The translations under genes were made by a program, and so were the position numbers. The notes below the pieces were generated by a model. It was not told the origin of the DNA and did no database searches. It worked only from the letters and a program-made list of their open reading frames with translations. DNA of 64,000 nt from positions 2,016,001-2,080,000 of the forward strand of contig CBDBCF010000001.1 of NCBI GenBank assembly GCA_965202985.1, read 5' to 3'. Positions 31,398-50,822 of this stretch are shown one piece after another (position 1 is the stretch's first letter; each line of letters starts with the position of its first letter). This DNA comes from Longimicrobiales bacterium. Lineage in GTDB: Bacteria; Gemmatimonadota; Gemmatimonadetes; Longimicrobiales; Gaopeijiaceae.

Positions 31398-31437
31398 GTG
31401 ACAGATTCTCGGACAAATTCATGGAGGAATCTGTCAC
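31398..31437. repeat. 40-bp palindromic element E1 (GTGACAGATTC-N18-GAATCTGTCAC)
   Basis: Perfect 11-bp inverted arms; supplies the helicase stop codon; related to the element at 48797-48838. Confidence 0.75.
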
Positions 31438-34400
31438 GACACTGCCGTTGCCGGGCCACCCACCGCCATCCAGCAGACCACGCCCACATCGTCGGTGGTG
31501 ACGGGCCGGCGCTCCGGGGGCGGTTCCACGACTCGGAGGCCGAAAGAGCGGACGACTTCGGCGATGCGGAGGGCGGCGTCGCTGCGGGTGATTTCGTTGC
31601 GCTCGGTCTGGCGCTTTATCTCGCCCAGCGCTCGGCGAACGGGCTGGTTGCGGCCGACGCCCAAGGCCTGATAGGCGGTCTCGCCGCCGGGGGGTAGGGT
31701 GACCGACGGGTCGGCGAGCAGGGTCTGGGCCCAGGCTTGGATTTTGCCGACGGAACGAGACCGGGAGCCGGCGGCGGCTTGGCCTCCGGGCTGGCCTCCG
31801 GGCATCGCGAGGGCGTTGTGCTCCTCGACGATTGAGCGGGCCGCCCGCTCCCACGCCGCTTCCAAGTCGATATCCGTTGGGGCTTCCACGCCGGGCGCAG
31901 AGCCCGGGTCGATGCGACGGAGGATCGCCGCGGGCTCGACGAGCACGTTGTCGGCGTCCACGTAGCGCCAGTAGCGTTCGCCCTCGACACGGCAGGCGAA
32001 GAAGACGCCGGGCGCACCGGACGACGGGACGCCAGGGCCTTGCCGGAACGCCGCGCCGACGCCCCACGGCAACTTGCGCAATTCGTCGCCCCTTCCTTCC
32101 GCAAGCTCCCGACCAAGCTCGGCTCGGAGAACCTCGTTGTTGGGGCCGTGCGCCCGCGCCGCGCCGTCGGGGCCGCCCAGGCCGTTTGCGCCGTCCGCGC
32201 CCGCTTTCGCGCCCCCTTCGGCCTCGTCCAGCAGGGTCTCGTCGCCCGCGGCCAAGCGGGCCGCGTAGGCGCGCATCTCGTCGTCGGCGTCGTCCACGAC
32301 CTGCACTTCCATGCCGAAGGGCCGCGCGGCCATGATCTTGCGGCGGATCGCGCGCTCCAGCTTCAAGATCACCTCCAGGTCGCCCGGCTCGGGCAGCATG
32401 GTGGTCAGGTGCACGTCGGCGTGGGGGCTCTTCAAACGGATGACGCGACCGTAGCGCTGCACCATGCGCTGCGGGTTCCACGGCATGTCGTAGCTGACCA
32501 CGGCCGCCGCTTGTTGCAGGTTCTGGCCCTCGGACAGGACGTCGTTGCTCAGCAGCAGGTCCACTTCGCCGTCGGGCGGCCGGTAGCCGGGGCGCACCAC
32601 GGTATCGGGGCAGAAGCGCGACAACATGGCGGTGCGCTGATCGGGGTTCGTCTCGGCGCCCACCACGGTCACGCGGTTGCGGCCAGCGACGGACTCGGGC
32701 AGGTGCTCGTCCAGGTAGCGAACCGTGTCGGCGAAGGTGGTGAAGACGGCCACCTTCTTGGACGGTGCCCCCTCCAGCACGCGACGCAGAAGGGCGAGCT
32801 TGGGGTCGTCCTCGGGGCGCAGCGCGGCCAGGCGCGCCTGGATCTGCTCCAGCAGGGCGGCGTCGTGCTCCACATGGTCGCGAAAGGCCGGGTCGTAGTC
32901 GCCGACGGGTCCCGCGTCGCTGTCGTCTTCAAGCGCTTCCTCCACCCACTGGGCCAGGGCGGACTCGTCCAACTCGCCGTGCGCGGCGCGAAGGGACTTG
33001 CGGCCCAGCACCCGTCCCGCGTCCCACGCCTCCAAGAACGCCCGGTGCGCGTTCAGCATCCGCCCGACGGTGAGCAGGCAGGCGTGCCAGCACGACTCCA
33101 GGCGCTTGAGCACGCCGGACCGTAGGAGGGCGCTGATCACGACTTCGCGCTGTTCGAGGGCGCGGGTCCGGTGGTAGCGGCTCCGGCAGTAGCGGGCCAT
33201 GTGCAAGGCGTCGATGCGCTCGGCGACGTAGGTGGCTAGGCCCGTGGGCGCGTCGTGCTGCTGGTCGCGGGGCTCGGCGTCGTGGCCTCGGCCTGGGTCG
33301 GCGTAGTCCAGGTCGTAGCGCTCGGTGGTCAGGTGCGGCTTGGGGAAGGTCACCGGCGTGCCGTCGGGAAAGACGGCGTCGGGGTACTCGCGCACGATGA
33401 ACCCCCGATCCCGACGCACGCTCACCATGTCGGCCAGCCCGAAGAGAAGGTCCGGGTTGAGGTTCTGGGCGTCGTGCTGGTTGGCGCCGGCGCGCAGGAA
33501 CAAGGTTGAAAGCGACGGGATGCCTTCGCCTTCGAACGCTCGGTCGTGGCGGGCGAACGCCATCACCAAGTGGTACAGGTCCCAGAGCCCGTTGTTGATC
33601 GGCGTGGCGGTGAGCAGGACCAGGTCCTTGGGCTGGCCGCCCAGCAGACGCGAGAGCGCGCCGTACCAAGTGGTGCTCGGGTTGCGGAGCGCGTGGGCCT
33701 CGTCGAACACGATCAGCCGATAGGCGTCCTTGTCGTTGGCCAGCGCCGGCTTGCCGGGGGCGCGTCCCGGACCGGCCAGTCCGAGCCCGGCCAGCTGCGG
33801 ATCGCCCGCGAACTCCTGATAGCTGACGACTTGTGCGGGCAGCCGCGTCTGGTGCAGTCGATCCTGCCAGTGGTCGCGAAGCTGGGCCGGCACCACGAGC
33901 AGGATGTGCTGGCCGCGCCGGACGGCGTACTCCTCCACGAATGCAAGGCCGATCTCCGTCTTGCCCGTGCCCACGCCGTCGGCGTACACGACACCGTGGC
34001 GGCGGCGGACGATGGCGAGCGCGCGCCGGAAGCCGTCGTCCTGGAAGGGTGCCAGCTTGACGGCGCTGGGGGACGGAAGGTCGTCGTCCTCGTCCAAGTC
34101 GTCGCCCAGAAGCTCCAGCAGCGCGCGCAGGTAGACGGTGCGGGGGTCGAGAAGGCCGGGGTCGGGAAAGAGCAGCTCGCGAAGCCGCTCCTTGAAGTCG
34201 TCCGATTCCTCCCACAGCCCATCGAACCATTGCACCGCCCGCTGGGCCACGGGCGGATCGTAGTGGACCAGTCCCAGCTCCAGGTTCCGCCACATGCCGG
34301 CCGACGTCAGGTTGGCGGAGGTCACCAGCGCGGCTCGCGCGTCGCCGGCGTCGCCGAACAAGTACGCCTTCCCGTGAAGAAACTTGTGCACGTAGCGCCG

Positions 34401-34763
34401 CACCGCCACGTCGGGCCGATCCAGCCACTCCTTCACGGCGAGCAACTGTTGCAGCGCCCGGCTGGGCGGAAAGCGCGACAGGTCCCGTTGGTCGCCGAGC
34501 GCCAGCAGCGTCCGTTCGAAGAGGGTGGCCGGGACTTCGTCGCCGATCCCGGTGGGCATGGTGCCCAGCAGTAGGCGCGTTCCGCGATCTCGGTCTTCGA
34601 CCAGCGCGGCCAGGTGGCGCAGCCCGCCCAGGTTCACGTACCCCGTGGCGACGGAGAGGCCGTGGCGGTCGTCAAAGTCGGCGGCGAGGTAGGACAGCGC
34701 CTCGCCGTGGTGGGTGGCGTCGGCTTGGTTGTCGAGGAGGGAGGGGCGTTGGGTCGAAGGCAC
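31434..34763 (-). CDS. SNF2-family helicase with N-terminal phospholipase D-like (nuclease) domain
   Basis: ATGYVN, LHGKAYLFGD, TSANLT, NLELG (PLD-like); ADGVGTGKT, DEAH, LTATP, SEGQNLQ, WNPQRMVQRYGR (SF2). Confidence 0.92.
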   Translation of the reverse strand: MPSTQRPSLLDNQADATHHGEALSYLAADFDDRHGLSVATGYVNLGGLRHLAALVEDRDRGTRLLLGTMPTGIGDEVPATLFERTLLALGDQRDLSRFPPSRALQQLLAVKEWLDRPDVAVRRYVHKFLHGKAYLFGDAGDARAALVTSANLTSAGMWRNLELGLVHYDPPVAQRAVQWFDGLWEESDDFKERLRELLFPDPGLLDPRTVYLRALLELLGDDLDEDDDLPSPSAVKLAPFQDDGFRRALAIVRRRHGVVYADGVGTGKTEIGLAFVEEYAVRRGQHILLVVPAQLRDHWQDRLHQTRLPAQVVSYQEFAGDPQLAGLGLAGPGRAPGKPALANDKDAYRLIVFDEAHALRNPSTTWYGALSRLLGGQPKDLVLLTATPINNGLWDLYHLVMAFARHDRAFEGEGIPSLSTLFLRAGANQHDAQNLNPDLLFGLADMVSVRRDRGFIVREYPDAVFPDGTPVTFPKPHLTTERYDLDYADPGRGHDAEPRDQQHDAPTGLATYVAERIDALHMARYCRSRYHRTRALEQREVVISALLRSGVLKRLESCWHACLLTVGRMLNAHRAFLEAWDAGRVLGRKSLRAAHGELDESALAQWVEEALEDDSDAGPVGDYDPAFRDHVEHDAALLEQIQARLAALRPEDDPKLALLRRVLEGAPSKKVAVFTTFADTVRYLDEHLPESVAGRNRVTVVGAETNPDQRTAMLSRFCPDTVVRPGYRPPDGEVDLLLSNDVLSEGQNLQQAAAVVSYDMPWNPQRMVQRYGRVIRLKSPHADVHLTTMLPEPGDLEVILKLERAIRRKIMAARPFGMEVQVVDDADDEMRAYAARLAAGDETLLDEAEGGAKAGADGANGLGGPDGAARAHGPNNEVLRAELGRELAEGRGDELRKLPWGVGAAFRQGPGVPSSGAPGVFFACRVEGERYWRYVDADNVLVEPAAILRRIDPGSAPGVEAPTDIDLEAAWERAARSIVEEHNALAMPGGQPGGQAAAGSRSRSVGKIQAWAQTLLADPSVTLPPGGETAYQALGVGRNQPVRRALGEIKRQTERNEITRSDAALRIAEVVRSFGLRVVEPPPERRPVTTDDVGVVCWMAVGGPATAVS

Positions 34764-35432: not shown

Positions 35433-35889
35433 CGTCTTCTGCGTCACGGCGCCGACGGCCACTCTTCGGCCCTTCTGCTTCGCCGTTGGGATCCTCCGCC
35501 GAGTAGTGAGCGCGCGGCTCCCGCACCCCAGCGCCTGGAACCACGTCCACCCCGGTGCCGGGCTGGCCGGCGCCTCCGAGACGTCGAGGGTACGACCGTT
35601 CGTCCACCTTGGTGCTCAAGGAACCGACGACGGCCTTCATATCGCCAAGCGAAGCCGTGACCTCTCGGTGGTTCTCGTCGACTCGGTCCTCCAGCCGCTC
35701 GATCCGGCGGCTGATCTCTTGCTTCATGCTGCCGATCTGCTCCGCGAGCCGCTTCTCTCCCGCTTCGCGTCGCTGCTCCGCCTCCTGCTGTTCTCTGCGC
35801 CTGTCGGCCTTTGCTGCTCGATGCACGCCAAGGGCAGATACCGCAATCGCCACGATCGTCCAAAAATCACCGTTGGAGAAAATCTCCAT
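35425..35889 (-). CDS. hypothetical protein, N-terminal TM plus coiled coil
   Basis: AAAGGA RBS; FWTIVAIAVSALGV hydrophobic stretch followed by charged heptads. Confidence 0.7.
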   Translation of the reverse strand: MEIFSNGDFWTIVAIAVSALGVHRAAKADRRREQQEAEQRREAGEKRLAEQIGSMKQEISRRIERLEDRVDENHREVTASLGDMKAVVGSLSTKVDERSYPRRLGGAGQPGTGVDVVPGAGVREPRAHYSAEDPNGEAEGPKSGRRRRDAEDES

Positions 35890-36044
35890 CGTGCTGTCCT
35901 TTCACTTGGGGGTCGGGCCGCCGGCGGGGCCGCTCTCGGTTCGGGTTCGCTGCGCCTCCCAATCTACATCGAGAAACGGCTCGGACGAACACTCGTGGGC
36001 AGAAGACCTGAGATTTGGGACGCCCGGCACGTGCGGACCACGGC

Positions 36045-37070
36045 TCATTCGAGCAACGCCGGTTGGGCGGTGCGAGCCGCAGCTTTGGCGCGTGGTTCAG
36101 GACGCCCGAGCCGCCGCACTAGCGCTGGCGAGAGATACAGGGACTCGACGGTTTCGCGGGCTTGACCCAGCAATGTGGCTTGAGTTGACCTTCCAGCCGA
36201 GACGTAGATGTGATGCAGCCGAAGGACCCCAGGCAGCGCCTTGCCGTGTGTCTTTTCGCCGGTCCAGCCGTCGTAGCTAACGACGTAGGACAACTCCAGC
36301 TTGTTCATTGTGCGTAGCGTGCCAACGAACTCGTCGTAGTCGACGCCATTGCAATAACGTCTGTCTCGCGCTTGCGAAGTGCCTTGGTATGGTGGGTCGA
36401 AGTAGACGAGATCCTCCGGCGTGGATGTCAGTGCTACTCGTCGATAGTCCGTTGCCGACAAGGATGTTCGGCCTGCCAGCAACCGGTGTACGCCGAGTAT
36501 TTGCCGTCTCATGACCGAAGGCCTCATTCCGGCTCGACGGTTGTCGGGACTCTGGTTGAAAGCTCCGTCGGCGTTGTACCGGACCGACCCCTTCACGATT
36601 CGAGCCAGAAGATAGAGAAGATGGCTCGGCTGATGGGATTCGTTGAACTCCCTGCGCACGCCGAAGAAAAACTCCTTCATGTAGGGCTGCTGATCGCGCC
36701 ACAGGCGAGCGTAGTCGGCAACGAGTTGTTCGGGCCTCTCCACAATCTCCCTCCAAAGGGCCATCAGAGGCGCGTTGAGGTCGTTGATCCAAAAACGCCT
36801 TGCCAACCCATGGGTCGCGGCGGCGATCGACACGGCGGCCGAGCCGCAGCAGGGCTCCACCACCCGATCGAGGCCCGGCGGAAAGTACGGCAGGATGAAC
36901 TTGGCGATTCCCCGCTTGCTCCCCTGGTAGGGGAACGGGTGCGGGGCCGCCGGACCGGCCCTGGTCTTCGCTTCCAACCTGCTGATGTTTCCGTCGCTCC
37001 TTCCTGGGGCACGTCGCGTCTCATCGAACCGGTACCGTCCGTAGTCCCCGGCCGGCTTCTGACGCGGCAT
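36045..37070 (-). CDS. DNA adenine methyltransferase, Dam/D12 class (no cognate endonuclease seen)
   Basis: PFPYQGSKR, VEPCCGSAAV, WINDLN, LVYFDPPY; AGGAGG RBS 8 nt before ATG 37070. Confidence 0.92.
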   Translation of the reverse strand: MPRQKPAGDYGRYRFDETRRAPGRSDGNISRLEAKTRAGPAAPHPFPYQGSKRGIAKFILPYFPPGLDRVVEPCCGSAAVSIAAATHGLARRFWINDLNAPLMALWREIVERPEQLVADYARLWRDQQPYMKEFFFGVRREFNESHQPSHLLYLLARIVKGSVRYNADGAFNQSPDNRRAGMRPSVMRRQILGVHRLLAGRTSLSATDYRRVALTSTPEDLVYFDPPYQGTSQARDRRYCNGVDYDEFVGTLRTMNKLELSYVVSYDGWTGEKTHGKALPGVLRLHHIYVSAGRSTQATLLGQARETVESLYLSPALVRRLGRPEPRAKAAARTAQPALLE

Positions 37071-37106
37071 CGCGAGCACCTCCTACTAATCTGGTGTCCT
37101 GGGCGC

Positions 37107-37153
37107 GAAGGGCAAGAAGTACACCTCCCCTTCTCAACCTTATCTTGCCCTTC
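37107..37153. promoter_or_regulatory. inverted repeat upstream of the Dam-like MTase
   Basis: GAAGGGCAAGA-N25-TCTTGCCCTTC, perfect 11-bp arms. Confidence 0.5.
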
Positions 37154-37320
37154 TCGCCGCCACTCCACAGGTCGTCCGGGCGCGTTGTGAGAAATGCGGG
37201 CTAAGTCCAGCCCCGATCTCGGGTCCGACACCTAACGGAGCAGTACTTCATCAAGGTCAACATTGAGGCCGAGACGGCGGCGAGCCTAGCCCGCACGATG
37301 ATTCTTCCGGCGGCGGTCCG

Positions 37321-37644
37321 CCCCGGAGCTGCCGGTTCACGGCTCGGGGCCCGACCTGTCCACCGCCACCGGCGCGCCCAACTTCCGCCAAGTCGGCGAC
37401 GTGACGATCACCGGTTTCTTCGAGCAGGTGGAGTTGGACTACGACATCACCGGCACCGTCGACTGGGAGCCCGGTTCGCCCGCCCACCGGGCAAGTGCTC
37501 CTTGGACCTGGACCTGACGGGAAAGGTTGATGTGCCGGGCATCGCGGCGACCGACTCGGTGACGATCCTCCGGAGCGCGCTGTCGGGCACCCCTGCGAAG
37601 AGGCCGTCAGCCTGCCGCTGGTGGAGACCATCCACTCGAACTGA
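37321..37644 (+). pseudogene. frameshifted 3' half of a paralog of the 37777-38400 lipoprotein
   Basis: DNA colinear with about 38080-38400 (for example GGCAAGTGCTC...GACCTGAC, CTGTCGGGCAC), with several indels. Confidence 0.75.
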
Positions 37645-37776
37645 GGGCGGGGCAACCGGGCCTGCCCGCGCGGCCCGTGGGGTTCCGGGGGAACCTTTTT
37701 CGCGAACGGCGGGTATGAAAGATGTGTCGCGGCGCTCCGCCTCCGACGCCGGAACCGAGAACGAAAGGAAATCGAG

Positions 37777-38400
37777 ATGAAGAAACGCACGCGAACCCAG
37801 TGGAAGCTGCTGGCGGCGCTGAGCGCGCTCCTGGCCGTCGCGGCTTGCGACGACACCGTCCGACCGGTCCAAGACGACGGGCTGACCGAGGCCGAGGTCG
37901 TGGCGCTGGTGGACGGTTTGGCCGCAGTCGGCGGCCTGACCGGGGTCGCCGCCGCCACTCCCGTCGTCGACCCACCAGCCATCGACTGCCCCCTGGGCGG
38001 CAAGGTGGACCTCTTGCGCAGGGTCATCGCCGACACGGTGACCACCCCGCTTCTGGTCCTGCGCTCCGATCTGGTCATGACGCCGCACGACTGCCGGTTC
38101 GAGGCTCGGGGGGTGACCTTCACCGCCAACGGTGCGCCCGACGTACGCCAAGTCGGCCGCATCAGGATCACCGGCCAGTACGAGAAGGTGGAGGTGGACT
38201 GGGAGATCGCAGGCGCGGTGGACTGGGAGACAAGCTCTCCCGCCCGGCACGGCAAGTGCTCGCTGGACCTCGACCTGACAGGAGAGGCCGACGTGCCGAC
38301 CGCCGAGTCGAGCGACGCGGTGGTGGTCTTTCGGGGCGTCCTGTCGGGCACCGCCTGCGACAAGGCCGTCAACCTGCCGCTGAACTCCAGTGGGAGCTGA
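37777..38400 (+). CDS. hypothetical lipoprotein
   Basis: AAAGGA RBS; MKKRTRTQWKLLAALSALLAVAA-C lipobox; four further Cys. Confidence 0.8.
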   Translation: MKKRTRTQWKLLAALSALLAVAACDDTVRPVQDDGLTEAEVVALVDGLAAVGGLTGVAAATPVVDPPAIDCPLGGKVDLLRRVIADTVTTPLLVLRSDLVMTPHDCRFEARGVTFTANGAPDVRQVGRIRITGQYEKVEVDWEIAGAVDWETSSPARHGKCSLDLDLTGEADVPTAESSDAVVVFRGVLSGTACDKAVNLPLNSSGS

Positions 38401-38426
38401 GAAACCTGTTCGCGAACCGCGAGTAG

Positions 38427-38838
38427 AAACGCACGCGAACCCTCATGGGCCTGCCGGCCGCGCTGATCGCGTCCTGGCCGTTGGCGGCCTGCGACGACGA
38501 CTCCGCCGGACCCGCCGGCGACGACACGCTGACCGACGAAGAGGTCGTGGCGCTGGTGGACGGGCTGACTGCGGTCGCCGGCCTGATCGGCGCCGATGCC
38601 GCGACCCCCGTCGTCGACCAGCCGGCGGTCCAGTGCCCCATGGCCGGCACCATGGGGTTTTCGGCACGAGTCACCCCCCGACAGTACCGCGACGACCCGA
38701 ACCATACGCACCGAACTCGTCGTGACGCCGCAGAACCGCCGGTTCACGGCCCGGGGCGCAACCTTAACCGCCAACGGCGCGCCCGATGTGCGCCAAGTCG
38801 GCGAAGTCACGATCGTCGGCTTGTCCGAGCGGGTCGGC
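38427..38838 (+). pseudogene. degenerate 5' portion of another paralog of the 37777-38400 lipoprotein
   Basis: AAACGCACGCGAACC start region without the ATG; LAACDDD...LTDEEVVALVDGL; frameshift near 38680; RFTARGATLTANGAPDVRQVG; then truncated. Confidence 0.75.
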
Positions 38839-38879
38839 GGAAGCTGACGCCGGTGCCGCCACCGGTTGCCCCGGTGCGA

Positions 38880-39250
38880 CGGAGTCCCGCCCAAGGGACC
38901 CGTCGATCTCGCAGATTCCGCTGTCGCCCGCCGACGCCTGGGGAGTGGTGGAGGACGGGCGGGTCGTCGGGGCTCGGGTCGCCGGCTGCCAACTGGAGTG
39001 GATCGGGCCGGCCGGGTCCACGACCCGCGGCCCTCCCGTCGAGTACGAGCGCATCGCCATCGGAACGCCCGAGAAGGAGGCGTGACGGGACTCCCGGGCC
39101 GAGACCGGCGGCGGCATGAGCATCTCCGTTCGCCGACGGCAGCGGGAGCCTCCAGTTTCTCCGTGAGTCGCGGCGGGTCGTCCGAAGACGAGCAGGACCT
39201 GTACAGCTACTCGTGGCCGGACGAACTGCCGCCGTTCTACGGCTCCCATT
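38880..39250 (+). pseudogene. possible internal fragment of a secreted beta-propeller-type protein
   Basis: IPLSPADAWGVVEDGRVV...EWIGPAG...GPPVEYERIAIG, then YSWPDELPPF in another frame; no start or signal. Confidence 0.35.
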
Positions 39251-39322
39251 CCAATCGATCCTCGCGGGCGGGCGTGGGTTGGAGGACCCGCGGCCGCGCC
39301 GAAGCCCCGCCGGCGTATAGAG

Positions 39323-39508
39323 CGATCGATGCCCGGCGGGAAGTAGGGCAGGATGAACTTGGTGAGTCCCCGCTTGCTCCCCCTGGTAGGGAAATGGGTG
39401 TGGGACCGCCGGGCCGGCCGTGGTCTTCGCTTCCAGTCTGCTCATGTCTCCGTCGCTCCTTCCTGGGGTACGTCGCGTCCCACTGAACCGGTATCGTCCG
39501 TAGCCCCG
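39323..39508 (-). pseudogene. diverged, frameshifted duplicate of the 5' end of the Dam-like MTase (direct repeat of 36865-37050)
   Basis: MSRLEAKTTAGPAVPHPFPYQG, then an extra base in the C-run (CTCCCCCTGG vs CTCCCCTGG); about 185 bp colinear. Confidence 0.85.
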
Positions 39509-39524
39509 AGAACTTCAAGCCAGT

Positions 39525-40202
39525 TCATCGGTCATCGGCGGTACACAGATGGGCCACAATCTTCGACGACAGGAACGGATAGGCGCGCGAGTCGAGCTGC
39601 CGTGCCAACCGCTCGGGAACCTCGGTGTCCGTTGTCTGCAAGCGTGCCGCCGCCCCGCCTGGACCACGCACGGGTATCCTCGGAACGCCCGGCAGCATGC
39701 GCCCGACCGTTCGGTACTCTTCTTCAACGCCGTCCATCCCGCCCACAAACACCGCCCCAGCAACGCGTCCGAAGCTCAGCATCTGCTTCCGCATCGTCTT
39801 CAAGGTGTTGTCCAGGTCTCGGCGCTTGTTCGTCCAGTGGATTCTCCCATAGCCAAGGTCCACAAGTCTCCGAGTTTCCGGCGTGACCTGCTCTCGGAAC
39901 CACTCCGATTGGAAGATGTCGACCGAGTGCTTGGCATCATGCTCCATGGCGATCGCCAGCACGAGTGGCGTGATGGCAGGGTGGCCTCCGACCAGCAACC
40001 TGCCGTCCCGGGACAGAACAGCTCGTAACAGCGCTGTCACAGCATCGGCGACTGCAGACGGGTCGTAGGGCCGGACCGCCCTTCCGCGCTCACCGGAAGG
40101 AAAGCTCGCTGACAGAAAGACGTACCGTCCTCCAAGGGAATTCATCGCCAATCTGTCACCTCCTGGGCCCGGGTGTGGGTTCAGGGCGTCCCGCAGGGTC
40201 AT
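39525..40202 (-). CDS. SLOG cluster 3-like domain protein
   Basis: VFLSASFP, LLVGGHPAITPLV, IFQSEWF, AVFVGGMDGVEEEY, PGGAA. Start is 40202 or 40145. Confidence 0.8.
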   Translation of the reverse strand: MTLRDALNPHPGPGGDRLAMNSLGGRYVFLSASFPSGERGRAVRPYDPSAVADAVTALLRAVLSRDGRLLVGGHPAITPLVLAIAMEHDAKHSVDIFQSEWFREQVTPETRRLVDLGYGRIHWTNKRRDLDNTLKTMRKQMLSFGRVAGAVFVGGMDGVEEEYRTVGRMLPGVPRIPVRGPGGAAARLQTTDTEVPERLARQLDSRAYPFLSSKIVAHLCTADDR

Positions 40203-40205
40203 TCA

Positions 40206-41045
40206 CTAACGCCTGCCATGTTTGACGATGTAGCCTGCGATATCCTTTGCAGCTTTTATTGCCGTCGCCCGAGAACTCCCAACGCAGAAGATCAACTCGA
40301 ACATCGGCGTGTTATTTGGCATGCGGAGGGTTGCCGAGTCTTCCAGAAATCGATTACCGTACAGCTCTCGTAGACGATTCTTGTATGTCTGAAGGAGCGC
40401 GCTGGTGCCTTTTTGTCTCTCGTCCTGGTCGTCCCGCCCACTAAACAGTCTATACTGTGGGTTGGGTCGGTACAGGTTTCGCCAGCTCTCATCTCCGTAG
40501 ACCCGCTTTAGGATACTTCCATGTTTTTCCGGCACGCCTTTTCGAGTCAGCAGGCGCATGACTGCCATGGTAGGAAACAGTATCCAGGTGTCGAGTGCTT
40601 CGAAGCTCGCAACTTTTTCGATTGTGAGCCATTCTACCTCCGTAGCGAACGGATCGAGAAACAAGACGCCCCTGTGCGTTTTCCAGTCGCGGGAAAGACT
40701 CTGCAGAAAGCAATTGGCATCCTTGTTCACAATTTCAATTCGTTTGTCTTCGTTCACGTTCATTCGCTCCTCCAGTTCCTTGCATCGGCGCGCGTCTTTC
40801 TCGACGAGCAGAATCTCGTCGAATCGTCTGTCAGACACGCGCTTGGCCCTTATGGCTGATCCCTCTAGGAACTGCCTTTCTTCTTTGTCATTTCTTCCAA
40901 GATTGATAGTCCCGGAGCCCGCAAAGGCATCAATGTACATCAGTCGAAAATAGTCCTGGTTCTTGAGAGCGGTGGTGTATGCATCGAGGTACCGTTCCAC
41001 CATGTCGAGCTTGTCTTTAGTCCAGTCGCCGCCGAATCTGCCCAT
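40206..41045 (-). CDS. tcmP: three-Cys-motif partner protein (methyltransferase-like fold)
   Basis: WTKDKL...YLDAY, YIDAFAGSG, DAN, LFLDPF; adjacent to DUF5131; low GC. Confidence 0.88.
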   Translation of the reverse strand: MGRFGGDWTKDKLDMVERYLDAYTTALKNQDYFRLMYIDAFAGSGTINLGRNDKEERQFLEGSAIRAKRVSDRRFDEILLVEKDARRCKELEERMNVNEDKRIEIVNKDANCFLQSLSRDWKTHRGVLFLDPFATEVEWLTIEKVASFEALDTWILFPTMAVMRLLTRKGVPEKHGSILKRVYGDESWRNLYRPNPQYRLFSGRDDQDERQKGTSALLQTYKNRLRELYGNRFLEDSATLRMPNNTPMFELIFCVGSSRATAIKAAKDIAGYIVKHGRR

Positions 41046-41072
41046 GGCTCAGTATCCTTTGCGTGTCAGTGG

Positions 41073-41921
41073 TCAGCGGATCTCGCCGATTCTCGGAAAA
41101 CCGTCCCAGGTCGTACCGTCGAGCTCCCGGCCACCCGCCTTCGGTGTCCGACCGCCCCACTGCTTGAAGAAGAACGGTACGCCGCTTGCGGTGCAGTCGT
41201 CCCGGACGGTGCGCGCCCACTCGGGAGCCATCTGACGGGCATCATGGCCGCTCTCGCCCCCGACGATAACCCAGTGGAGCCCCGGGGAGGCGTCCTTGGC
41301 ACCGAGGCCGGAAAGCCTGCCACTGGCAGGGGCGTCGCTACGGGCGGCGTCGCGGCCGCGCAGAAAGCCGGACAGGTCCAGCGGCCCGATCAGGGGCTCG
41401 CAGCTCAGGAAGCGCACGGCGGCTGGGACGGCCAGCAGGTGCCGTACCCGATAGGCCACCGACTGGTCCTCGACGGACGTGCCGATCCAGATGTGGGACG
41501 GGAGCCCGGCCGGGAACAGGTCGGCGTTGCGTCGGACGAACTTGGCGGCCCTGGCGGGGCGCTTCGTCAGGACTTGGTAGACGTGACGGCCGATGTCGAG
41601 CATCACCTGGAAGCAGCGTCGGACGAACTCCTCCGGGACCTCCTTGTGGAAGAGGTCCGACATGGAGTTGACGAAGACGCGGCGGGGCCGTCGCCACGAC
41701 GCTGGGATCGGCAGGCGATCCGGCCAGAGGCGGACGGCGAAGGGGTTCCGTCGGTTCGCCGCCGTGTTGACCACGGGCAGGCGGGCGCGATAGGTGGTCG
41801 CCAGCAGGCGGTTCGACAGGCGCTCGGCGTAGCAGTGGTCGCAGCCGGCCGAGATGGGCGTGCATCCCGTGGTGGGGTTCCAGGTGGCGTCGGTCCACTC
41901 GATGGCGGTGCGTTCGGGCAA
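41073..41921 (-). CDS. DUF5131 / phage Gp37-Gp68 family protein (three-Cys motif)
   Basis: IEWTDATWNPTTGC-x6-C-x2-CYA, FVNSMSDLFH, LTKR, FLSCEPL, WVIVGGESG, FFFKQWGG; AGGAG RBS and TTG start. Confidence 0.95.
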   Translation of the reverse strand: MPERTAIEWTDATWNPTTGCTPISAGCDHCYAERLSNRLLATTYRARLPVVNTAANRRNPFAVRLWPDRLPIPASWRRPRRVFVNSMSDLFHKEVPEEFVRRCFQVMLDIGRHVYQVLTKRPARAAKFVRRNADLFPAGLPSHIWIGTSVEDQSVAYRVRHLLAVPAAVRFLSCEPLIGPLDLSGFLRGRDAARSDAPASGRLSGLGAKDASPGLHWVIVGGESGHDARQMAPEWARTVRDDCTASGVPFFFKQWGGRTPKAGGRELDGTTWDGFPRIGEIR

Positions 41922-41977
41922 GGACGGCTCCTAGGGCGGCGGGTCACCGGGGGCTGGCTCGGCGGCCCGGTATCCGA

Positions 41978-42006
41978 AAGGTAGTTGTTCGGCTTTTGTT
42001 CGGCAA
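41978..42006 (-). promoter_or_regulatory. sigma70-type promoter with an overlapping GAAC-N7-GAAC direct-repeat operator
   Basis: Minus strand reads TTGCCG-AACAAAAGCCGAACAAC(17)-TACCTT; GCCGAACAA occurs twice with 11-bp period. Confidence 0.6.
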
Positions 42007-42049
42007 CCAGATTGGCGGTGGACTGACCCGGTTTCGTGCAGTTCGAACT

Positions 42050-42102
42050 CCGTCAAATCGCAGGTAAAGCGCGTCGGCGTTCTTGGCGACACGTAGCTTC
42101 AT
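42050..42102 (-). pseudogene. truncated DUF2283-like fragment
   Basis: MKLRVAKNADALYLRFD resembles the DUF2283 N-terminus; similarity is lost immediately afterwards. Confidence 0.5.
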
Positions 42103-42214
42103 GGGGTTGCTCGAGATGACCGCCGGTAGGCCGCGGCCCACGAGTTCGAGGTGTCGGTGATCACGTTCCGGGACTTGGGACAAGCAGGCCGCCATCGACG
42201 GACGTTGCCTCTGC

Positions 42215-42805
42215 CTATCCGTTCGCCAACTGCATCGCCCAAACGCCAATAATCGTTACAGCTCCTAGCAGCAGACCACTTCGCAGGCAATTGAAAGCGG
42301 CGACATTCCAGTTGTGCTTCTTGGTATTCGCCAATTCCTGACAAAACACCTCATTAGAAAGTACGCTTGCGTCTCGTATTCCACGAAATTCAAATTCTGT
42401 CCCTTTGCCAAACATCTTGGAAGTCTGATTTGCTTTCAACGTGATGTACCATCCAATCAATACATACGCTAGTGAGAAAAATAGTCCAACAATTCCAACC
42501 CATGTCCAGTCGATCGGATGAGAAAGGGTAACCAACAGTCCGGCAAAAGCAAGTATTCCCAGCAATCTCTGCCCTAGTCTGTCAGTCTTCGCCTCGATCG
42601 ACTCAGCTCGTTCATGTTCCTGTTCAAGCCGCGTCTTCAACACCCACAGCGGAATGGCCTCATAAGGCGATGTTTCATTATTAATACGTGAATCGATATC
42701 GTGATTCGCTCGCCAAGCTTTCCAAAATGGCATCACCCAATCCCAGAGGCCCTTCATCCAGAACACTACTCGGGCACCAAGGCGCCTCAAATTCGCCCTA
42801 AGCAT
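42215..42805 (-). CDS. 3-TM membrane protein with Pycsar-effector-like topology
   Basis: EHERAESIEAK helix, then two TM segments, a soluble loop, a Q...N..K helix and a third TM. Start overlaps the ATP-grasp stop; low GC. Confidence 0.7.
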   Translation of the reverse strand: MLRANLRRLGARVVFWMKGLWDWVMPFWKAWRANHDIDSRINNETSPYEAIPLWVLKTRLEQEHERAESIEAKTDRLGQRLLGILAFAGLLVTLSHPIDWTWVGIVGLFFSLAYVLIGWYITLKANQTSKMFGKGTEFEFRGIRDASVLSNEVFCQELANTKKHNWNVAAFNCLRSGLLLGAVTIIGVWAMQLANG

Positions 42806-43754
42806 TCGCTGGTGCCAACCAAGTTGCTAGGGCAACATCGATTGGCCGATCGTCGTTTGCCAGCCAGCTCCATTCGCCTGTCGGGTTGATCTCAATGAAG
42901 AAAATGCCCTTGTTGTTTTCGGCGAGGTCTATGGCTGCAAACGACAAGCCCAAGTTCCGAACAAGTTCTCGGCACTTGTGCTCAATGTCTGGCGTCAGTC
43001 GGCAGGAATCATAAACAAGTTGATTCTTGGGGATCACGCGCCAATCGCCTTCTATGCCCTTCTCGTCCTTTAGTACACGAACGGCGAATACATGATCGCC
43101 TACGACAGTAACGCGCAAGTCGTGCTTGTTCTTTATTGCCTGTTGCGCGACCACCGGCGCGGTTGCGATGGTGGCATCAGTCAGTCGATCCCGCTGAAGA
43201 ATCGTGGTATACGTGAACAAGCTTTGCTCGCCCTCAGTCAGCAGCACCGTATCTAGGGACTTGATTGCTAGCTCTGTCGGAAAGACGGCGTCGATGCTTT
43301 CTACGTCATTGGTGACCAAGGTACGTGGTACGCGAAACCCCACTCGATCAGCCGCCGCCAATTGATAAGGTTTGGATTCTGCTTGATATGTTGCAGACGG
43401 GTGGTTCATCCAGCGAGCCTCCTCAAACACTGACAGTGACCTAAGAAATGCCATCCATTGCGACCTGTCCAGTTGCTCGCTCACAGACAATGGAACACCG
43501 GGCGAATTCCTGTGAAAAATCGGAGCTCTATACCACACCGACTTTAGATTCTCGACAGAATGTCGTCCGACTGGTCCACTGATCTGCATCAGCGGCCCCA
43601 AGGGGTCGACAGTTATCCGATGTCTTGCCAAGTCTTCTTTGTTGAGGCGAACATAGGATACGCCCGCCGCTTCCAACCTAGCCGTGACCATGTCGGCGGC
43701 CAGGTCATAAAGACTCGACAAGATGAGAACTTCTGAAGTACTTCCTCCCTTCAC
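42798..43754 (-). CDS. ATP-grasp ligase, RimK-like MvdC/MvdD-type peptide maturase
   Basis: VLILSSLYDLAAD, SVWYRAP, WMNHP, AESKPYQL, GFRVPRTLVTN, QQAI..K.DLRVTVVG, DWR, FAAIDL, FIEINPTGEWSWL. Confidence 0.9.
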   Translation of the reverse strand: MKGGSTSEVLILSSLYDLAADMVTARLEAAGVSYVRLNKEDLARHRITVDPLGPLMQISGPVGRHSVENLKSVWYRAPIFHRNSPGVPLSVSEQLDRSQWMAFLRSLSVFEEARWMNHPSATYQAESKPYQLAAADRVGFRVPRTLVTNDVESIDAVFPTELAIKSLDTVLLTEGEQSLFTYTTILQRDRLTDATIATAPVVAQQAIKNKHDLRVTVVGDHVFAVRVLKDEKGIEGDWRVIPKNQLVYDSCRLTPDIEHKCRELVRNLGLSFAAIDLAENNKGIFFIEINPTGEWSWLANDDRPIDVALATWLAPANA

Positions 43755-43942
43755 GATCCCTTCATGTCCTCGCCGGTCTCGATATCGTGCTTTTTCGTTG
43801 CCGCCCGGTATGCCGGGTTCAGCACCATCGGCTTGCCGTCCTTGACCCAGTAGCCCCGGGCCGAGTCGTAGACAGCGCCGGGGGGCATGTCGACGGTTTC
43901 TCGTGTAGGGTGGCGAGACGCGAGATCGATCAAGATGTGCAT
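43751..43942 (-). CDS. putative graspetide (ATP-grasp-modified RiPP) precursor, 63 aa
   Basis: AAGGAG RBS 6 nt before ATG 43942; MHILIDLASRH...YDSARGYW...AATKKHDIETGEDMKGS; its stop overlaps the ligase start (GTGA). Confidence 0.8.
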   Translation of the reverse strand: MHILIDLASRHPTRETVDMPPGAVYDSARGYWVKDGKPMVLNPAYRAATKKHDIETGEDMKGS

Positions 43943-44057
43943 TGTCATCTCCTTGGTGAAGGTCGGCGTGCGTCGTCCATCCACTACAATAACATGCGTG
44001 TCAAGGGGCAGGGCTGGCGCAAGCCGGAGGGTAAGATGGCGTCTCCGTACGCTGTTC

Positions 44058-47000
44058 TTAAACGTCAAGCCCTCTCAGGTGCTCAGTCAAGCGGGTGCGG
44101 TACGCCGCCGGCAGCGCGGCGTGCGTGAAGTCCTTGTAGATCACTTCGAGGTCGTCGGGGCCGAGACCCCAGGCCCGGGCCACGCGGGCGTCGATTTCCA
44201 GGCGCAGCTCCGTGCGGTCGGCGTCCAGCAGCGGGCCGTACTCCACGCCGGTCTCGCGGGCGAAGTCGGCGAAACGGTCGTCCACGGCGGACAGACGGGC
44301 GGCGGCTCCGGCGATCTGGGCGAAGTCGTCGTCGGTCAGGGAAGGCACGTAAAGGCTCTCGAGCAGGAAGAAGTTGACGTTCAGTTCGATGAATCGACGG
44401 GCCTGCCAGTCGAAAGGCAGGCTGTTCATGATGCCCAAGCAAGCGGCCCGCGCCAGCCCGTCTTCGGTCGAAAATGACAGATAAGGGGCCTTATTTGTCA
44501 AGAAAACCCCATTCGGGACCAAGCAGGCGATCACGGTGCGCGAATTCGTGCGGTTCGTGACATCTCGAAAGCACAATCTGTCACGGCAGATGTCAGCCAA
44601 GACCGACTGCCTGCGTTCGGCCACGGGCAGGTCCGGCGCAAGGAGCGAACCGGAACCGGGCCTGGGCTTTCGCACCTTGGCCCAGAGCGCGTCGGTCAGC
44701 GGCAGGGACCGCTCGCCGTACCCGTGAGGATCGTACTGGCCGAAGCTCTCGCCCTTCCAGAGACGGGCGTCGCCGTCCCGTCCTGCCCACAGCTTCTTGT
44801 CGTTGGTCTCGTGCAGCTCGGCCACCGGAAAGCAGGACCAACGCCCGTCGGCGCCGCGAGGGAAGAGGCTGCCGGTGCGGACGCGAGCCAGTAGGTCGGC
44901 CTCGGCCTGGGAACGGACCAACGGCGTCTCCCATTCCGGCCCGAAGGTGGACGGGGCCAAGCCGACGCCGGGGCTGGCCGCCTGCTCGACCCACATGCGC
45001 TTGGATTCAGCGGTGCCGGCCACCGACACCAAGTGGTCCGCCGCCGGCAGCCCGCGCTGGGCAACGACCAATGCGATTGAGTATTGCGGGTGCGTGTCGA
45101 ACGCCCACCGTCCCCGGTTCAGCAGGAAGTCCACCCGGCGCGTCGTCGATCCTCGATAGAGCCACTTGCGGAACTCCTTGGAGCCCTTGGCCACGAATGC
45201 GGTCCTGGGCAGCACCACGCCGGCGAACCCGCGCTCGCGCACCAACATCCGGTAGCGCTGGCAGAAGTACTTGTACAGGTCGGGGTCGCCGCCCATCGGA
45301 TCGTAGTCGCTGCGCTCCGGGTCGGGTCCCGCCAGGGCTTGCCGATAGTTGCGAGCCTGCGCTTGCCGAGCCTCCAGCCTTTCCTCCAACTCCGGCCGCT
45401 CCCGCATCAATTCCCCCACCCACTCCCGCCGCTCCTTCTCAGCCAAAGCCGCGATCCCAGGACGGTACAGCCCGTAGAACGACAGCTCCTCGACCGTCAC
45501 TTCCTCCCAGGGCGGGTTGCCGACCACCACGTCGAACCCCGGCGACGACCGCGAGAACACCTGCGGGAACGCCAGCGGCCAGTGGAGGAAGCAATGCCGG
45601 TCGGCCAGCTCGCGGGCTCGGCGCACGAGCGCGGTCTGGGGTTTGCCCGAGATTACGGCCACGCCGTTGGTCGCCACATCTTCGCGCGCGCCAGCCAGTC
45701 CGAACTGCTCCGCCGTCCACAGGTCGAAGAGCCGCTTCATCCCCTCGGTTGCGTCCGACGCCTCTTGGTCCGCCGCTTGGCTGGCCGCGTACTCTTCGGG
45801 CGTGCGGTCGTCGATCTCGGCCAACTTGTGCACCGCCGCCGCGGCCTCGTTCAGCGCTTGCCGCAACGGCTCCCGGAACAGCGGGGCTTCGTCCAGCAGC
45901 GGCTTCGGGTCGCCCACGCCGATCAAGGCGTCGCCCACGACCACGTTCCGTCCCAAGTACGCCAGCGACAGGCCGGGCACGAACGACGCCAGCCACAGCG
46001 ACAGCGCCGCCACCTCGACGCCCATCGCGCTCCGGTCCACGCCGAAGACGCAGTGCTTGACGATCAGACGGCGGAGCAGGGCCGCGTCTTCGCACGCCAC
46101 GCCGGGGGACGCGCGGCTGCGCAGTCGTTCCAGCGCATCCAGCAACGGCGGCAGGGGGTGCTCGGCCAGGAAGCGCACGGTCATCTCGGCCAGGGCGTCC
46201 GCGACCTGCACAAGGAAGTGCGCGCTGCCGCACGCCGGGTCCACGACCGCGAACGACAGCAGAAGCTTGGCCGCCGCCTCCGGGTCCGTTTTCGCCTGCT
46301 CCGCCACTTGCGCCAAGTGCTTCTTGAACGGCGGCTCCACGGCTCCCTTCACCAAGTGGCGCACGATCTCGACCGGCGTGTAGTAGACGCCTTCCTCCTT
46401 GCGACCGCCCGCGTGGGTCTGCCAGAGCAGGCCGCCCGGCTTCACTTCCGCCGCGCCCGGCGACGGCGCGCTCACGTAGCGGTCCTTCTTGGCGTCGTAG
46501 CGCAGCGGGCGGGCGGCCAGCGACAGGCGCAGGCCCAGCAGGGACTCGTAGGTGTGGCCGATGTGGGCGATCTCCAGCGTCGAAAAGTCCGCTCCCCTCC
46601 CTTGCTCGGCGTCGTGGCCGACAGCCGACAGTACGCGCCCGAACTCGGGGTCGCGCAGCTCCATCCGCTCCAGCAGCTCGGCGCCCGCGAAGTCCTCGGC
46701 CGCGAAGAGGGCGCCGTTGTAGGCGGGCACGTCCCAGGCCGGATTGCCGGATCGCATCGCCTTGACCAGCCGCGTGAACCCGTTCCACAGCGCGGACGAC
46801 GCCGGGCTTAGCTTGCCCTTGGTCGCGTGGGCCTCGGTTACAAGCTCCGACAGCGACGCCTTGCGGTAGGACTCGTTGTTCATCGGCAGATGGCCGGCGG
46901 CTTCCGCAAAGAGGATGAACACGGCGCGGAACACCAGCGTCATCGCGGCCTTCTCCAGCTTGTCGCGCTGGGTGTCGTCGTGCAGGTCCAGGCCGTGCTC

Positions 47001-47966
47001 CTTGGCCCATCGCTCCATGTCGGCGGCCAGCGCGGGCAAGGCCTCCTGACGGATCGTGCGGTCCAGCCGGGCGCGCAGCCGGACGCCGAAGTTGATCGCT
47101 TCTTTTTGCAGGTCGGCGAAGCCGTGGCCGGCCAGGGACGCGGGCGCGAGCAACGCCAGGAAGGCGCGCCGGTCGTCGTCCAGCAGGTCGTCGTCCAGTT
47201 CGAGCCAGTGGCGGGTGCCGCCGGGGGACTCCATGTCGAACAGGCGGAAGCAGCCGCGAAACGCCAAGATGCCGTAGCGAGCGCCTCGTTCCTTGCAGTC
47301 CGACGCCAGCAGTCCCTCGGGCGGACGGCCGTCGCTGTCCAAGCGGGCCAGCGCACTCGCCGTCTTCTTGGGATGCACCACCGCCACCGGCCGGCCTTCG
47401 TGGACGGCCAAGTAGCCCCGGCGCGGAAGGCGGTCCAGGCGGTAGCCCAGCGCCGACAACGTCTGACGCCACGAACTCGGCGCGGGCGGGAGGTCAGCCA
47501 CCGCGCGGCGGGCGCGCTCCCATCGCGCGGGGTCGCGCCGATAGCGGGATTCCAGGGTGTGGCTGGTGAGGAGGCCGTTGAAGGCCAGCCCGTTCCCCGC
47601 GGCGCGGTTCAGCTCGTCCGCCAGTCGGCGCACGGCTTCCAGGGGCGACAGGTCCCCCAGCGACTCGAGCGATTTGGCCAGGTGGCCGGCGTCCACGGAG
47701 CGCACCGGGCCTTGGTGCGTGACCGGCCCCAGGACGCGGAGGCGGCCGGGGCGCTTGGGGTCGTCGGCCAGCAGCAGGCAGCGCCGGGTGACGCCTGCGG
47801 ACAGGGCGCGCCATTCGGCTCGCATGGCGGCGTCGGTGGTCGAGGCGGAGGCCGTAAGGTCGATGTCGCCGACGGCGGCGCGGGGGAGCGCTTCGGCGCC
47901 GGGGGCGGTCAGCGGGCGCGCCACGCCTTCGCGCACCAGGCGGCGGATGAGGTCGGGGGCGGTCAC
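44058..47966 (-). CDS. large Eco57I/type IIG-like N6-adenine DNA methyltransferase with TRD
   Basis: YNGALF, IGHTYESLL, GVYYTP, VDPACGSAHFL, VVGNPPW, DLYKYF; C-terminal RDVTNRTNSRT...NSLPFDW TRD. Confidence 0.92.
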   Translation of the reverse strand: MTAPDLIRRLVREGVARPLTAPGAEALPRAAVGDIDLTASASTTDAAMRAEWRALSAGVTRRCLLLADDPKRPGRLRVLGPVTHQGPVRSVDAGHLAKSLESLGDLSPLEAVRRLADELNRAAGNGLAFNGLLTSHTLESRYRRDPARWERARRAVADLPPAPSSWRQTLSALGYRLDRLPRRGYLAVHEGRPVAVVHPKKTASALARLDSDGRPPEGLLASDCKERGARYGILAFRGCFRLFDMESPGGTRHWLELDDDLLDDDRRAFLALLAPASLAGHGFADLQKEAINFGVRLRARLDRTIRQEALPALAADMERWAKEHGLDLHDDTQRDKLEKAAMTLVFRAVFILFAEAAGHLPMNNESYRKASLSELVTEAHATKGKLSPASSALWNGFTRLVKAMRSGNPAWDVPAYNGALFAAEDFAGAELLERMELRDPEFGRVLSAVGHDAEQGRGADFSTLEIAHIGHTYESLLGLRLSLAARPLRYDAKKDRYVSAPSPGAAEVKPGGLLWQTHAGGRKEEGVYYTPVEIVRHLVKGAVEPPFKKHLAQVAEQAKTDPEAAAKLLLSFAVVDPACGSAHFLVQVADALAEMTVRFLAEHPLPPLLDALERLRSRASPGVACEDAALLRRLIVKHCVFGVDRSAMGVEVAALSLWLASFVPGLSLAYLGRNVVVGDALIGVGDPKPLLDEAPLFREPLRQALNEAAAAVHKLAEIDDRTPEEYAASQAADQEASDATEGMKRLFDLWTAEQFGLAGAREDVATNGVAVISGKPQTALVRRARELADRHCFLHWPLAFPQVFSRSSPGFDVVVGNPPWEEVTVEELSFYGLYRPGIAALAEKERREWVGELMRERPELEERLEARQAQARNYRQALAGPDPERSDYDPMGGDPDLYKYFCQRYRMLVRERGFAGVVLPRTAFVAKGSKEFRKWLYRGSTTRRVDFLLNRGRWAFDTHPQYSIALVVAQRGLPAADHLVSVAGTAESKRMWVEQAASPGVGLAPSTFGPEWETPLVRSQAEADLLARVRTGSLFPRGADGRWSCFPVAELHETNDKKLWAGRDGDARLWKGESFGQYDPHGYGERSLPLTDALWAKVRKPRPGSGSLLAPDLPVAERRQSVLADICRDRLCFRDVTNRTNSRTVIACLVPNGVFLTNKAPYLSFSTEDGLARAACLGIMNSLPFDWQARRFIELNVNFFLLESLYVPSLTDDDFAQIAGAAARLSAVDDRFADFARETGVEYGPLLDADRTELRLEIDARVARAWGLGPDDLEVIYKDFTHAALPAAYRTRLTEHLRGLDV

Positions 47967-48796: not shown

Positions 48797-48838
48797 TTGA
48801 CAGATTCTCTGCCAGTTTTGTTGGGGTCAATCTGTCAA
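48797..48838. repeat. 42-bp palindromic element E2 (TTGACAGATT-N22-AATCTGTCAA)
   Basis: Perfect 10-bp arms; shares TGACAGATTCTC and AATCTGTCA with E1 in the same orientation; supplies the DUF4276 stop codon. Confidence 0.75.
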
Positions 48839-49458
48839 GTCGCAGAACGCTCACTTCGTGCGCACACCCGGTCGAGGAAGTCGAGCAGCCGCTTTACGTG
48901 TGGCGAGGCGTCGGCAACCTTCTTCGGGTCGATCTTCTCCAACAAGACGAATGAATGACGGCCCTTGTGGTACGGCTTTCTGCAATGGCGTGTCGCTTTC
49001 TTGAGGCCTGCCATGACGTCCTCCTTCGCGATTCCTTCGATATCGCTACCGCCCGGAAGCGCCTCTTGCGTGAAATCCCCGCCAAAGAACTTCGCTAGGC
49101 ATTCCCTGTCTGCCAAGAACCAAGCCTCCATGCACTGAACCATTAGTTGCGCTTGGTCATCGGTGGCCCCCGGCGGCTGCTTCCACTCCTTATCCCGCCT
49201 CTGCAAGTGGGACCATGGCCTGCCTCTTCGGCCAACTCGCTCCTCACTGTCAACGAGCAGGATGGCGATATGGTCATCCACCGAGGTGTCCAGGCTATGG
49301 CGAAATTTGTCGTAGGCTTTGTCCCGCCCGCCGCACGCTACAATACGAGGCATTCGGTTCTCAAGGCCGGCGCGGAGAAAAAACTTGCTAAACCCCTTGC
49401 GACAACGGCTTCTCAGTTCGCGGGTGTCTCCTCCTCCTTCGACAAACACCGTCACCAT
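48835..49458 (-). CDS. DUF4276 family protein (TOPRIM/RloB-like)
   Basis: VFVEGGGD, ACGGR, LLVDSE, MVQCMEAWFLAD, YHKGRHS. Confidence 0.85.
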   Translation of the reverse strand: MVTVFVEGGGDTRELRSRCRKGFSKFFLRAGLENRMPRIVACGGRDKAYDKFRHSLDTSVDDHIAILLVDSEERVGRRGRPWSHLQRRDKEWKQPPGATDDQAQLMVQCMEAWFLADRECLAKFFGGDFTQEALPGGSDIEGIAKEDVMAGLKKATRHCRKPYHKGRHSFVLLEKIDPKKVADASPHVKRLLDFLDRVCARSERSAT

Positions 49459-50654: not shown

Positions 50655-50822
50655 TATCTCCCCGGACACGGCCGGACGGCCGGAGCGAGTTGGGCCGGAA
50701 TTGCGTGGACGCACGAACGATGCAGGAATCTACGACCGGGCGGCTTCTGCTGCAAGGAGAGCAGGCGAGGTCGGGGGCGGCGACGCCACGCGGGGCCGTC
50801 ACGTTTGCCTCGGCGGAGGCCG

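Follow-up and report, generated by a model that had tools for sequence, protein, structure and literature searches.

A graspetide group 7 cassette coupled to an unnamed membrane protein family, a candidate anti-phage module of defence islands and prophages

The window, that is, the whole 64,000-nucleotide stretch of Longimicrobiales DNA analysed here, carries a compact cassette of three genes on its minus strand. The first of these (43751..43942, minus strand) encodes a 63-amino-acid peptide precursor of graspetide group 7, which fits the cluster171 consensus and has an AAGGAG 6 nt ahead of its start; its core motif (43754..43798, minus strand), [T/S]-K-K-x-D-x-E-T-G-E-D-x-K-G-x-stop, contains the predicted cross-link donors and acceptors. 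It is followed by an ATP-grasp graspetide synthetase of 318 amino acids with a GTG start (42798..43754, minus strand), recognised by profile and PDB relatives, and then by a three-helix membrane protein of an unnamed family (42215..42805, minus strand; 196 amino acids, or 180 if translation begins at Met17), which is the candidate effector. The initial annotation had described three overlapping genes, and the sequence bears this out: the three minus-strand ORFs share GTGA at the precursor/ligase junction and the 8-nt ATGCTTAG at the ligase/membrane gene junction, the latter only with the first ATG of the membrane ORF; the database copy (P0004) begins at Met17.

The cassette has a GC content of 0.521, against 0.698 in both flanking genes, which confirms the lower value noted earlier. 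It was also correctly placed downstream of an Eco57I-like methyltransferase, since the upstream gene (44058..47966, minus strand) is recognised by models of type IIG restriction-methylases (PADLOC E 4.6e-116, in addition to an Eco57I Pfam match). This gene lies outside the cassette and forms the upstream border of a variable slot, the downstream border of which, likewise outside the cassette, is a PLD-SNF2 helicase gene (31434..34763, minus strand). The slot (31434-47966) holds 12 kb of cargo in the window and other cargo in the related locus L001; the triad follows a type IIG homolog in L001 as well as in L002, and in L137 the IIG and PLD-SNF2 genes have no triad between them, only two small ORFs. 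The slot looks like a defence hot spot of the window's family. The neighbours within the window comprise, besides the type IIG and PLD-SNF2 genes, a DUF5131/TcmP pair (PDC-M41), a Thoeris III-type SLOG protein, a Dam-type methylase, HEC-01 and a MunI-like RM set. The SLOG protein (39525-40202) passes the cut-off of the model for Thoeris type III ThcA and has a 76% identical copy in L002; no TIR family match was found among the scanned window ORFs. The DUF5131 and TcmP pair (40206-41921) matches the PADLOC candidate PDC-M41A/B, and its TcmP gene, with a GC content of 0.518, is low like the cassette. Further along, there is a HEC-01A/B pair (AAA_21 and DUF4276; 48835-50714), and a MunI-like endonuclease between MT-A70 and N6/N4 methylases (54316-56665). 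Two or three similar tandem lipoprotein-like ORFs (37298-39119), with an LLAVAAC or LAAC signal and a VVDxPAxxCP motif, are interspersed with a partial copy of the beginning of the Dam gene, and a Pfam scan of two of them gave no match. Exporter, protease and acetyltransferase families had no match among the scanned neighbouring ORFs of the window, as the initial annotation had stated for the adjacent genes.

The window peptide is composed of a leader of the form H-I-L...P...YD...G-x-W and a C-terminal core of 15 amino acids. The earlier reading that the peptide ends at ETGED is wrong, as it continues with MKGS, and the conserved core includes this K-G-x-stop tail. Residues K50, K51, D53, E55, T56, G57, E58, D59 and K61 are invariant in 52/52 aligned precursors, which had been selected by the core motif, and the stop lies at equal distance from the core in 51 of these 52. 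With a looser core pattern, a precursor is found upstream of the ligase in 74/76 loci, so that the expected retention of a TKKxDxETGED peptide beside homologous ligases holds. The peptide also fits the cluster171 consensus HILL...YD...GxW...TKKxDVETGEDQKGE given in a published supplement, where precursors of this type carry the label gr_07, that is, group 7 of Lee et al. 2020, and where none of 30 inspected cluster171 rows has a GG mark (Makarova et al. 2022, PMC8939145). Carter et al. 2026 (PMC13097080) place such precursors in group 7 as well. In four loci (L028, L034, L070 and L071) two tandem precursor genes lie upstream of the ligase and differ at their variable positions. Many cores end in GE or GQ, which suggested a Pup-like conjugation via the last residue, but this idea was set aside because T, S, Y or shorter ends occur too, with S in the window.

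The ligase obtained its best scores with graspetide synthetase models (TIGR04187, E 1.5e-59; TIGR04185, E 2.2e-40), each below the cut-off, and its PDB relatives are the graspetide synthetases 9bou, 7mgv (CdnC), 7m4s and 5ig8/5ig9 (E 6e-25 to 6e-15). Residues K128, K165, K210, D212, R214, D276 and N290 are invariant in 65/65 ligases, and 647 homologs were collected at E<=1e-40. The ligase is 45% identical over 97% to that of Martelella AD-3 (CP014277), which has been assigned to cluster171/gr_07, as has Marinomonas fungiae JCM 18476, the source of marinomonasin; the taxa named for the cluster are Proteobacteria, Firmicutes, Verrucomicrobia and archaea (Makarova et al. 2022, PMC8939145). These sequence matches place the peptide and its ligase in graspetide group 7 (Makarova cluster 171), which is catalogued and chemically characterised and hence not new. 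The rings of marinomonasin are reportedly one ester and two isopeptide bonds. Marinomonasin and the group 7 peptide Gra-3 each undergo three dehydrations in E. coli (Ayikpoe et al. 2022, PMC9576775), and by analogy with the chemistry of both, ring formation is predicted for the window peptide. The leader, the TKKxDxETGEDxKG core and the ligase branch are common to these peptides and the window's, whereas the published accounts, as far as they were available, deal with chemistry only and mention no obligate membrane gene, defence or prophage context, or function. The initial reading of a precursor with an ATP-grasp ligase is therefore supported by the cluster171 consensus and the synthetase matches; its claim of novelty has to be restricted, as the peptide/ligase group is already characterised (group 7, marinomonasin type), but no published function of group 7, including a defence role, was found in the literature searched, where subscription journals are mostly absent.

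The third gene product has no Pfam, NCBIfam or PADLOC match, and its family comprises 130 representatives at E<=1e-3. The helix-TM-TM-loop-helix-TM layout proposed in the initial annotation is corroborated by hydropathy and by a confident, all-helical AlphaFold2 model (pLDDT 94.7). The conserved polar residues E63, R66, K73, E157, N160, N167 and R175 flank the hydrophobic helices, and the IEAK and Q...N..K motifs pointed out earlier do correspond to conserved columns, the former as hDEKT in the family and the latter as Q-E-x-x-N. A Foldseek search with the model gave no match at E<=0.001, the best VIA Z was 8.9 (rmsd 4.4, 167 aligned) with generic helical bundles and nothing structure-specific, and a comparison of the protein with PDB sequences gave no match. 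Similarly, scans for transporter families among 126 members yielded nothing above scattered noise. A predicted complex of four membrane chains and one precursor, with the peptide unmodified and the stoichiometry guessed, scored 0.00.

The linkage of the three genes was determined in a set of 83 loci, in which duplicates among the metagenome loci were left. The membrane gene lies downstream of the ligase in 70/71 loci having at least 500 bp there, a near-obligate association that upholds the suggested co-conservation, and the whole triad is present in 63/65 related loci whose flanks are long enough on either side, so that the three-gene arrangement is not due to chance. Conversely, searches with the membrane protein retrieved 2 and 5 of the 72,556 plasmid records and 4/401 genomes of the phylum, and all 11 of these loci adjoin a graspetide ligase, including one (G288) that is frameshifted throughout. 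The 4/401 genomes, set beside the distant taxa named for cluster171, illustrate a patchy spread. Damaged cassettes occur among 102 loci: in three, the membrane ORF is whole beside a ligase that is broken or truncated (split by an IS in L114, interrupted by an internal stop in L078, and lacking the N-terminus together with the precursor in L077), and in two both are lost (L003 and L091). Polarity or sequencing error could be the cause in each of the three. A distant group 7 triad in the same family of bacteria, with a precursor ending in KGY (L090/L105, genome G189), adjoins Vsr-like and endonuclease-like ORFs, which suggests an independent acquisition. In Agrobacterium T29 (L109:6939-8940) a longer membrane homolog of 296 amino acids is followed by further coupled ORFs.

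The same membrane family is also found downstream of more distant ligases with multi-repeat precursors, which are encoded on plasmids and phages. Five such loci (L110, L111, L112, L115 and L116; about 5400-8100) are on plasmids and on two phage records, namely Leptospira phage LalZ_80412 and an unverified gut phage scaffold. The membrane proteins of L110, L111, L115 and L116 match the group 7 profile, with an HHalign value of 97%. In the published ligase tree, group 7 comes directly after the thuringinin branch, which contains the Leptospira alstonii ligase, and the membrane partner of that branch (Cluster 18) was read as a likely exporter (Makarova et al. 2022, PMC8939145); the sister membrane proteins described here probably correspond to this Cluster 18. 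The two types of loci have in common the order of precursor, ligase and membrane protein, a homologous membrane protein and neighbouring ligase-tree leaves, but the thuringinin-type loci have multi-repeat precursors and a published reading of export, whereas group 7 has one terminal core.

The membrane protein had been called Pycsar-like, and this part of the initial annotation stands only as a remote resemblance. The layout and the D-x-K ahead of TM1 are shared with PycTM, and HHalign of the group 7 membrane family against PycTM gives 35% (P 4e-4, score 30.9) with a PycTM profile of only 8 PF18967 proteins (nine matches, one left out); 60 hydrophobicity-preserving shuffles reached a score of at most 23.3. 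The sister, thuringinin-type membrane family gives 64% against the same 8 PycTM sequences. PF18967 is a minority family in 19/30 nearest named ESM clusters. In contrast, a Pfam scan for PF18967 assigned 0/126 members, 0/18 in another scan and 0/27 of the sister proteins with a precomputed label, PADLOC PycTM models match 3 and 2 of 126 members (E 0.01-0.03), and the fold searches of the model listed no PycTM-type protein. The comparison proposed for 42215-42805 returned an HHalign value above the shuffles and, in Foldseek, nothing at E<=0.001. The precomputed PF18967 labels on 27/120 sister proteins were rejected, as direct scanning did not reproduce them; 6 of the 27 match PF24838 8xMP (E 2e-4 to 0.025, below the cut-off), a family for which the literature search returned nothing relevant. 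The cassette also differs from Pycsar in its partner, as the effector's neighbour is an ATP-grasp peptide ligase, and the pyrimidine cyclase PycC is absent among the scanned neighbours of the window and of 34 loci. The PycTM likeness may thus be taken as a weak lead to remote kinship, not as membership.

The genomic context was assessed on 256 ORFs called in 35 loci that were non-redundant and 5.5 kb or longer. Of these ORFs, 233 neighbours from 34 loci were scanned after 23 had been dropped (those of L055, which duplicates L053, together with 19 from L001-L003). A clear defence family lies within 6-8 kb in 16/34 loci, or 22/34 with borderline cases, although the assignment was not blind and L001 and L002 were counted via identity to the window's type IIG gene; outside the window's order, the count is 14/31 loci. 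The families beside the loci are CBASS, Thoeris/TIR, type I or IIG RM, Gabija, BREX, RloC-like, AbiE, pPIWI-RE and AAA+S8. The other 18/34 loci have no clear defence neighbour, and some are located amid housekeeping genes (L017, L036 and L077). A first control, without taxon matching to the metagenome loci, consisted of 34 random stretches of matched length taken from 11 genomes in the window's family (L124-L157); defence genes occur in 9/34 (12 with borderline cases), which compared to 16/34 corresponds to p=0.13 (0.028 with borderline cases). A second control, picked after the result of the first was known and likewise without such taxon matching, used 18 stretches of 8.5 kb at even spacing in six genomes from other families and gave 0/18 (1 borderline; p=0.0003), and the pooled controls gave 9/52 (p=0.004). 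The window's family is itself defence-rich, with 9/34 random stretches, far above the 0/18 in other families of the phylum. Of the plasmid-borne group 7 loci, 4/5 annotated ones lie amid Sir2, Qat, Gabija-like, ABC-three-component or AbiE genes, the fifth has mobile genes only, and a sixth is without annotation. The supposed enrichment in defence islands is borne out as a frequent context of defence genes (16/34) and of prophages, but not as a significant excess over the window's own family (p=0.13).

Whole triads are also present in five IMG/VR contigs, four of them distinct. Viral scans with the ligase as query gave nothing, which reflects a limit of sensitivity, because the precursor alignment then found the five contigs. 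In L120 the triad is flanked by Mu-like G and I genes. These two genes adjoin each other in phage vB_ThpS-P1, where the slot is empty, and enclose three other ORFs in RC1; the G-I slot of Pseudomonas Mu-like phages holds anti-CRISPR genes. With regard to export, neither C39/PCAT nor HlyD was detected among the 233 neighbours of 34 loci, and no leader protease or exporter is conserved there, which agrees with the absence of adjacent ones in the window. The one MFS gene among the 233 neighbours is in L053, a locus of Klebsiella type that also has a primase and an integrase and in which an MFS pump and two GNAT genes (2459-4860) precede the cassette; the L053 cassette DNA has no match in 5,426 E. 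coli genomes. An acetyltransferase and an efflux pump have been named for group 7 (Carter et al. 2026, PMC13097080). Among the 34 loci the two occur together only in L053, and an L053-type locus is probably the source of the published association.

Taken together, the three genes form a coupled, mobile unit that is found in variable slots of both defence islands and prophages. A defence role of the cassette is plausible but unproven, and the reading preferred here, which has about an even chance of being correct, is that of an abortive-infection phage-defence module, in which the peptide, predicted to be cross-linked and to stay in the cell, would gate the membrane protein. The ligase would need no phage trigger to spend ATP and close about three lactam or lactone rings in the C-terminal core, as characterised group 7 members suggest. 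Since exporter and protease are missing, the product would stay cytoplasmic, as a leader-bearing mini-protein of about 63 amino acids. The membrane protein may form an oligomer, bind the acidic core and damage the inner membrane when active, a step suggested by the weak PycTM likeness and the conserved basic and polar residues beside the membrane helices. The direction of control is the least certain step. Related peptides are modified in uninfected E. coli, so a modified peptide that activated the effector directly would kill the cell, and from this it would follow that the peptide represses the effector or that a phage step turns it into an activator. By analogy with Panoptes and Hailong, a guard or decoy arrangement, in which the peptide holds the effector shut until infection removes, cuts or sequesters it, is tentatively favoured, although less likely than not; activation by a phage-processed or phage-bound peptide ranks below it and appears unlikely. 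The three loci with an intact membrane ORF and a damaged ligase are a point against the guard version, but they do not settle the direction of control. A precedent for guard-type TM effectors is Panoptes, where the OptS products repress OptE (PMC13712596). The proposed logic of a constitutive enzyme product that controls a membrane effector would be common to the cassette and to Panoptes (OptS/OptE) and Hailong, but their signals are nucleotides or DNA, and the likeness drawn is one of logic.

Several other explanations have to be weighed against a gated effector. The membrane protein might be a minimal exporter or self-immunity factor for a secreted tricyclic peptide directed against microbes or proteases, with the island location reflecting mobility only. 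Export has been proposed for Cluster 18 of the thuringinin loci (Makarova et al. 2022, PMC8939145), to the membrane partner of which the group 7 protein is homologous by HHalign (97%) and by tree order, strict linkage fits an exporter equally well, and the own-family control gives no significant excess of defence genes. The explanation is nevertheless unlikely, as this is a 3-helix protein of ~200 amino acids with no ATPase, no leader protease is conserved among the 233 neighbours, transporter families had no match above scattered noise in 126 members, the best leads of the protein are PycTM and 8xMP, and the cassettes are placed in prophage accessory slots and inside defence operons. Somewhat less probable still is that the cyclised peptide itself is the weapon, with the membrane protein anchoring or presenting it. 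The inhibited target would be a phage protein, for instance a protease of head maturation, or, where a prophage or plasmid carries the cassette, a defence protein of the host. According to one review, all functionally characterised graspetides are protease inhibitors, and the L120 triad in the G-I slot adjoins the Mu-like I protease gene; moreover, the lanthivirins are anti-phage RiPPs, and their coi cluster is without a protease (Shomar et al. 2026, 10.64898/2026.08.26.747419). The lanthivirins thus share with the cassette a RiPP cluster and, for coi, the missing protease, but the anti-phage activity is theirs, they are of lanthipeptide chemistry and from Actinobacteria, and the available part of that report mentions no dedicated membrane effector. 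A peptide weapon would leave unexplained the effector-like layout, the conserved polar patch and the near-absence of membrane-gene loss, and most loci are not viral.

The least probable of these explanations is an addiction module, in which a toxic membrane protein is restrained by a constantly renewed modified peptide and stabilises its carrier plasmid, prophage or island, with defence being secondary. The tight operon with the peptide first and the frequent integrase, resolvase, IS and conjugation neighbours would fit such a role. However, the ligase-damaged loci that keep the whole membrane ORF and the broken or lost cassettes of L003 and L091 speak against it, and a macrocycle would be expected to be stable and not labile.

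To conclude, what is new here is the strong link of the group 7 cassette to a membrane protein, which is undescribed in the literature searched. Members of group 7 are known from hundreds of genomes, and E. coli has been used to produce two of them; the membrane partner, the link to the thuringinin branch and the placement near defence genes and in prophages offer a concrete route to the natural function of the group. A broader reading, more doubtful than the defence role of the cassette itself, is that group 7 and thuringinin-type graspetides constitute a widespread immune system and not secreted products, with the macrocyclised peptide acting as an intracellular signal or decoy that gates a PycTM-like effector. 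If this is true, peptide chemistry would fill the role that cyclic nucleotides have in Pycsar and Panoptes, and a membrane family currently read as a peptide exporter would be recast. It would also define a class of bacterial immunity in which a ribosomal macrocyclic peptide is the control molecule.
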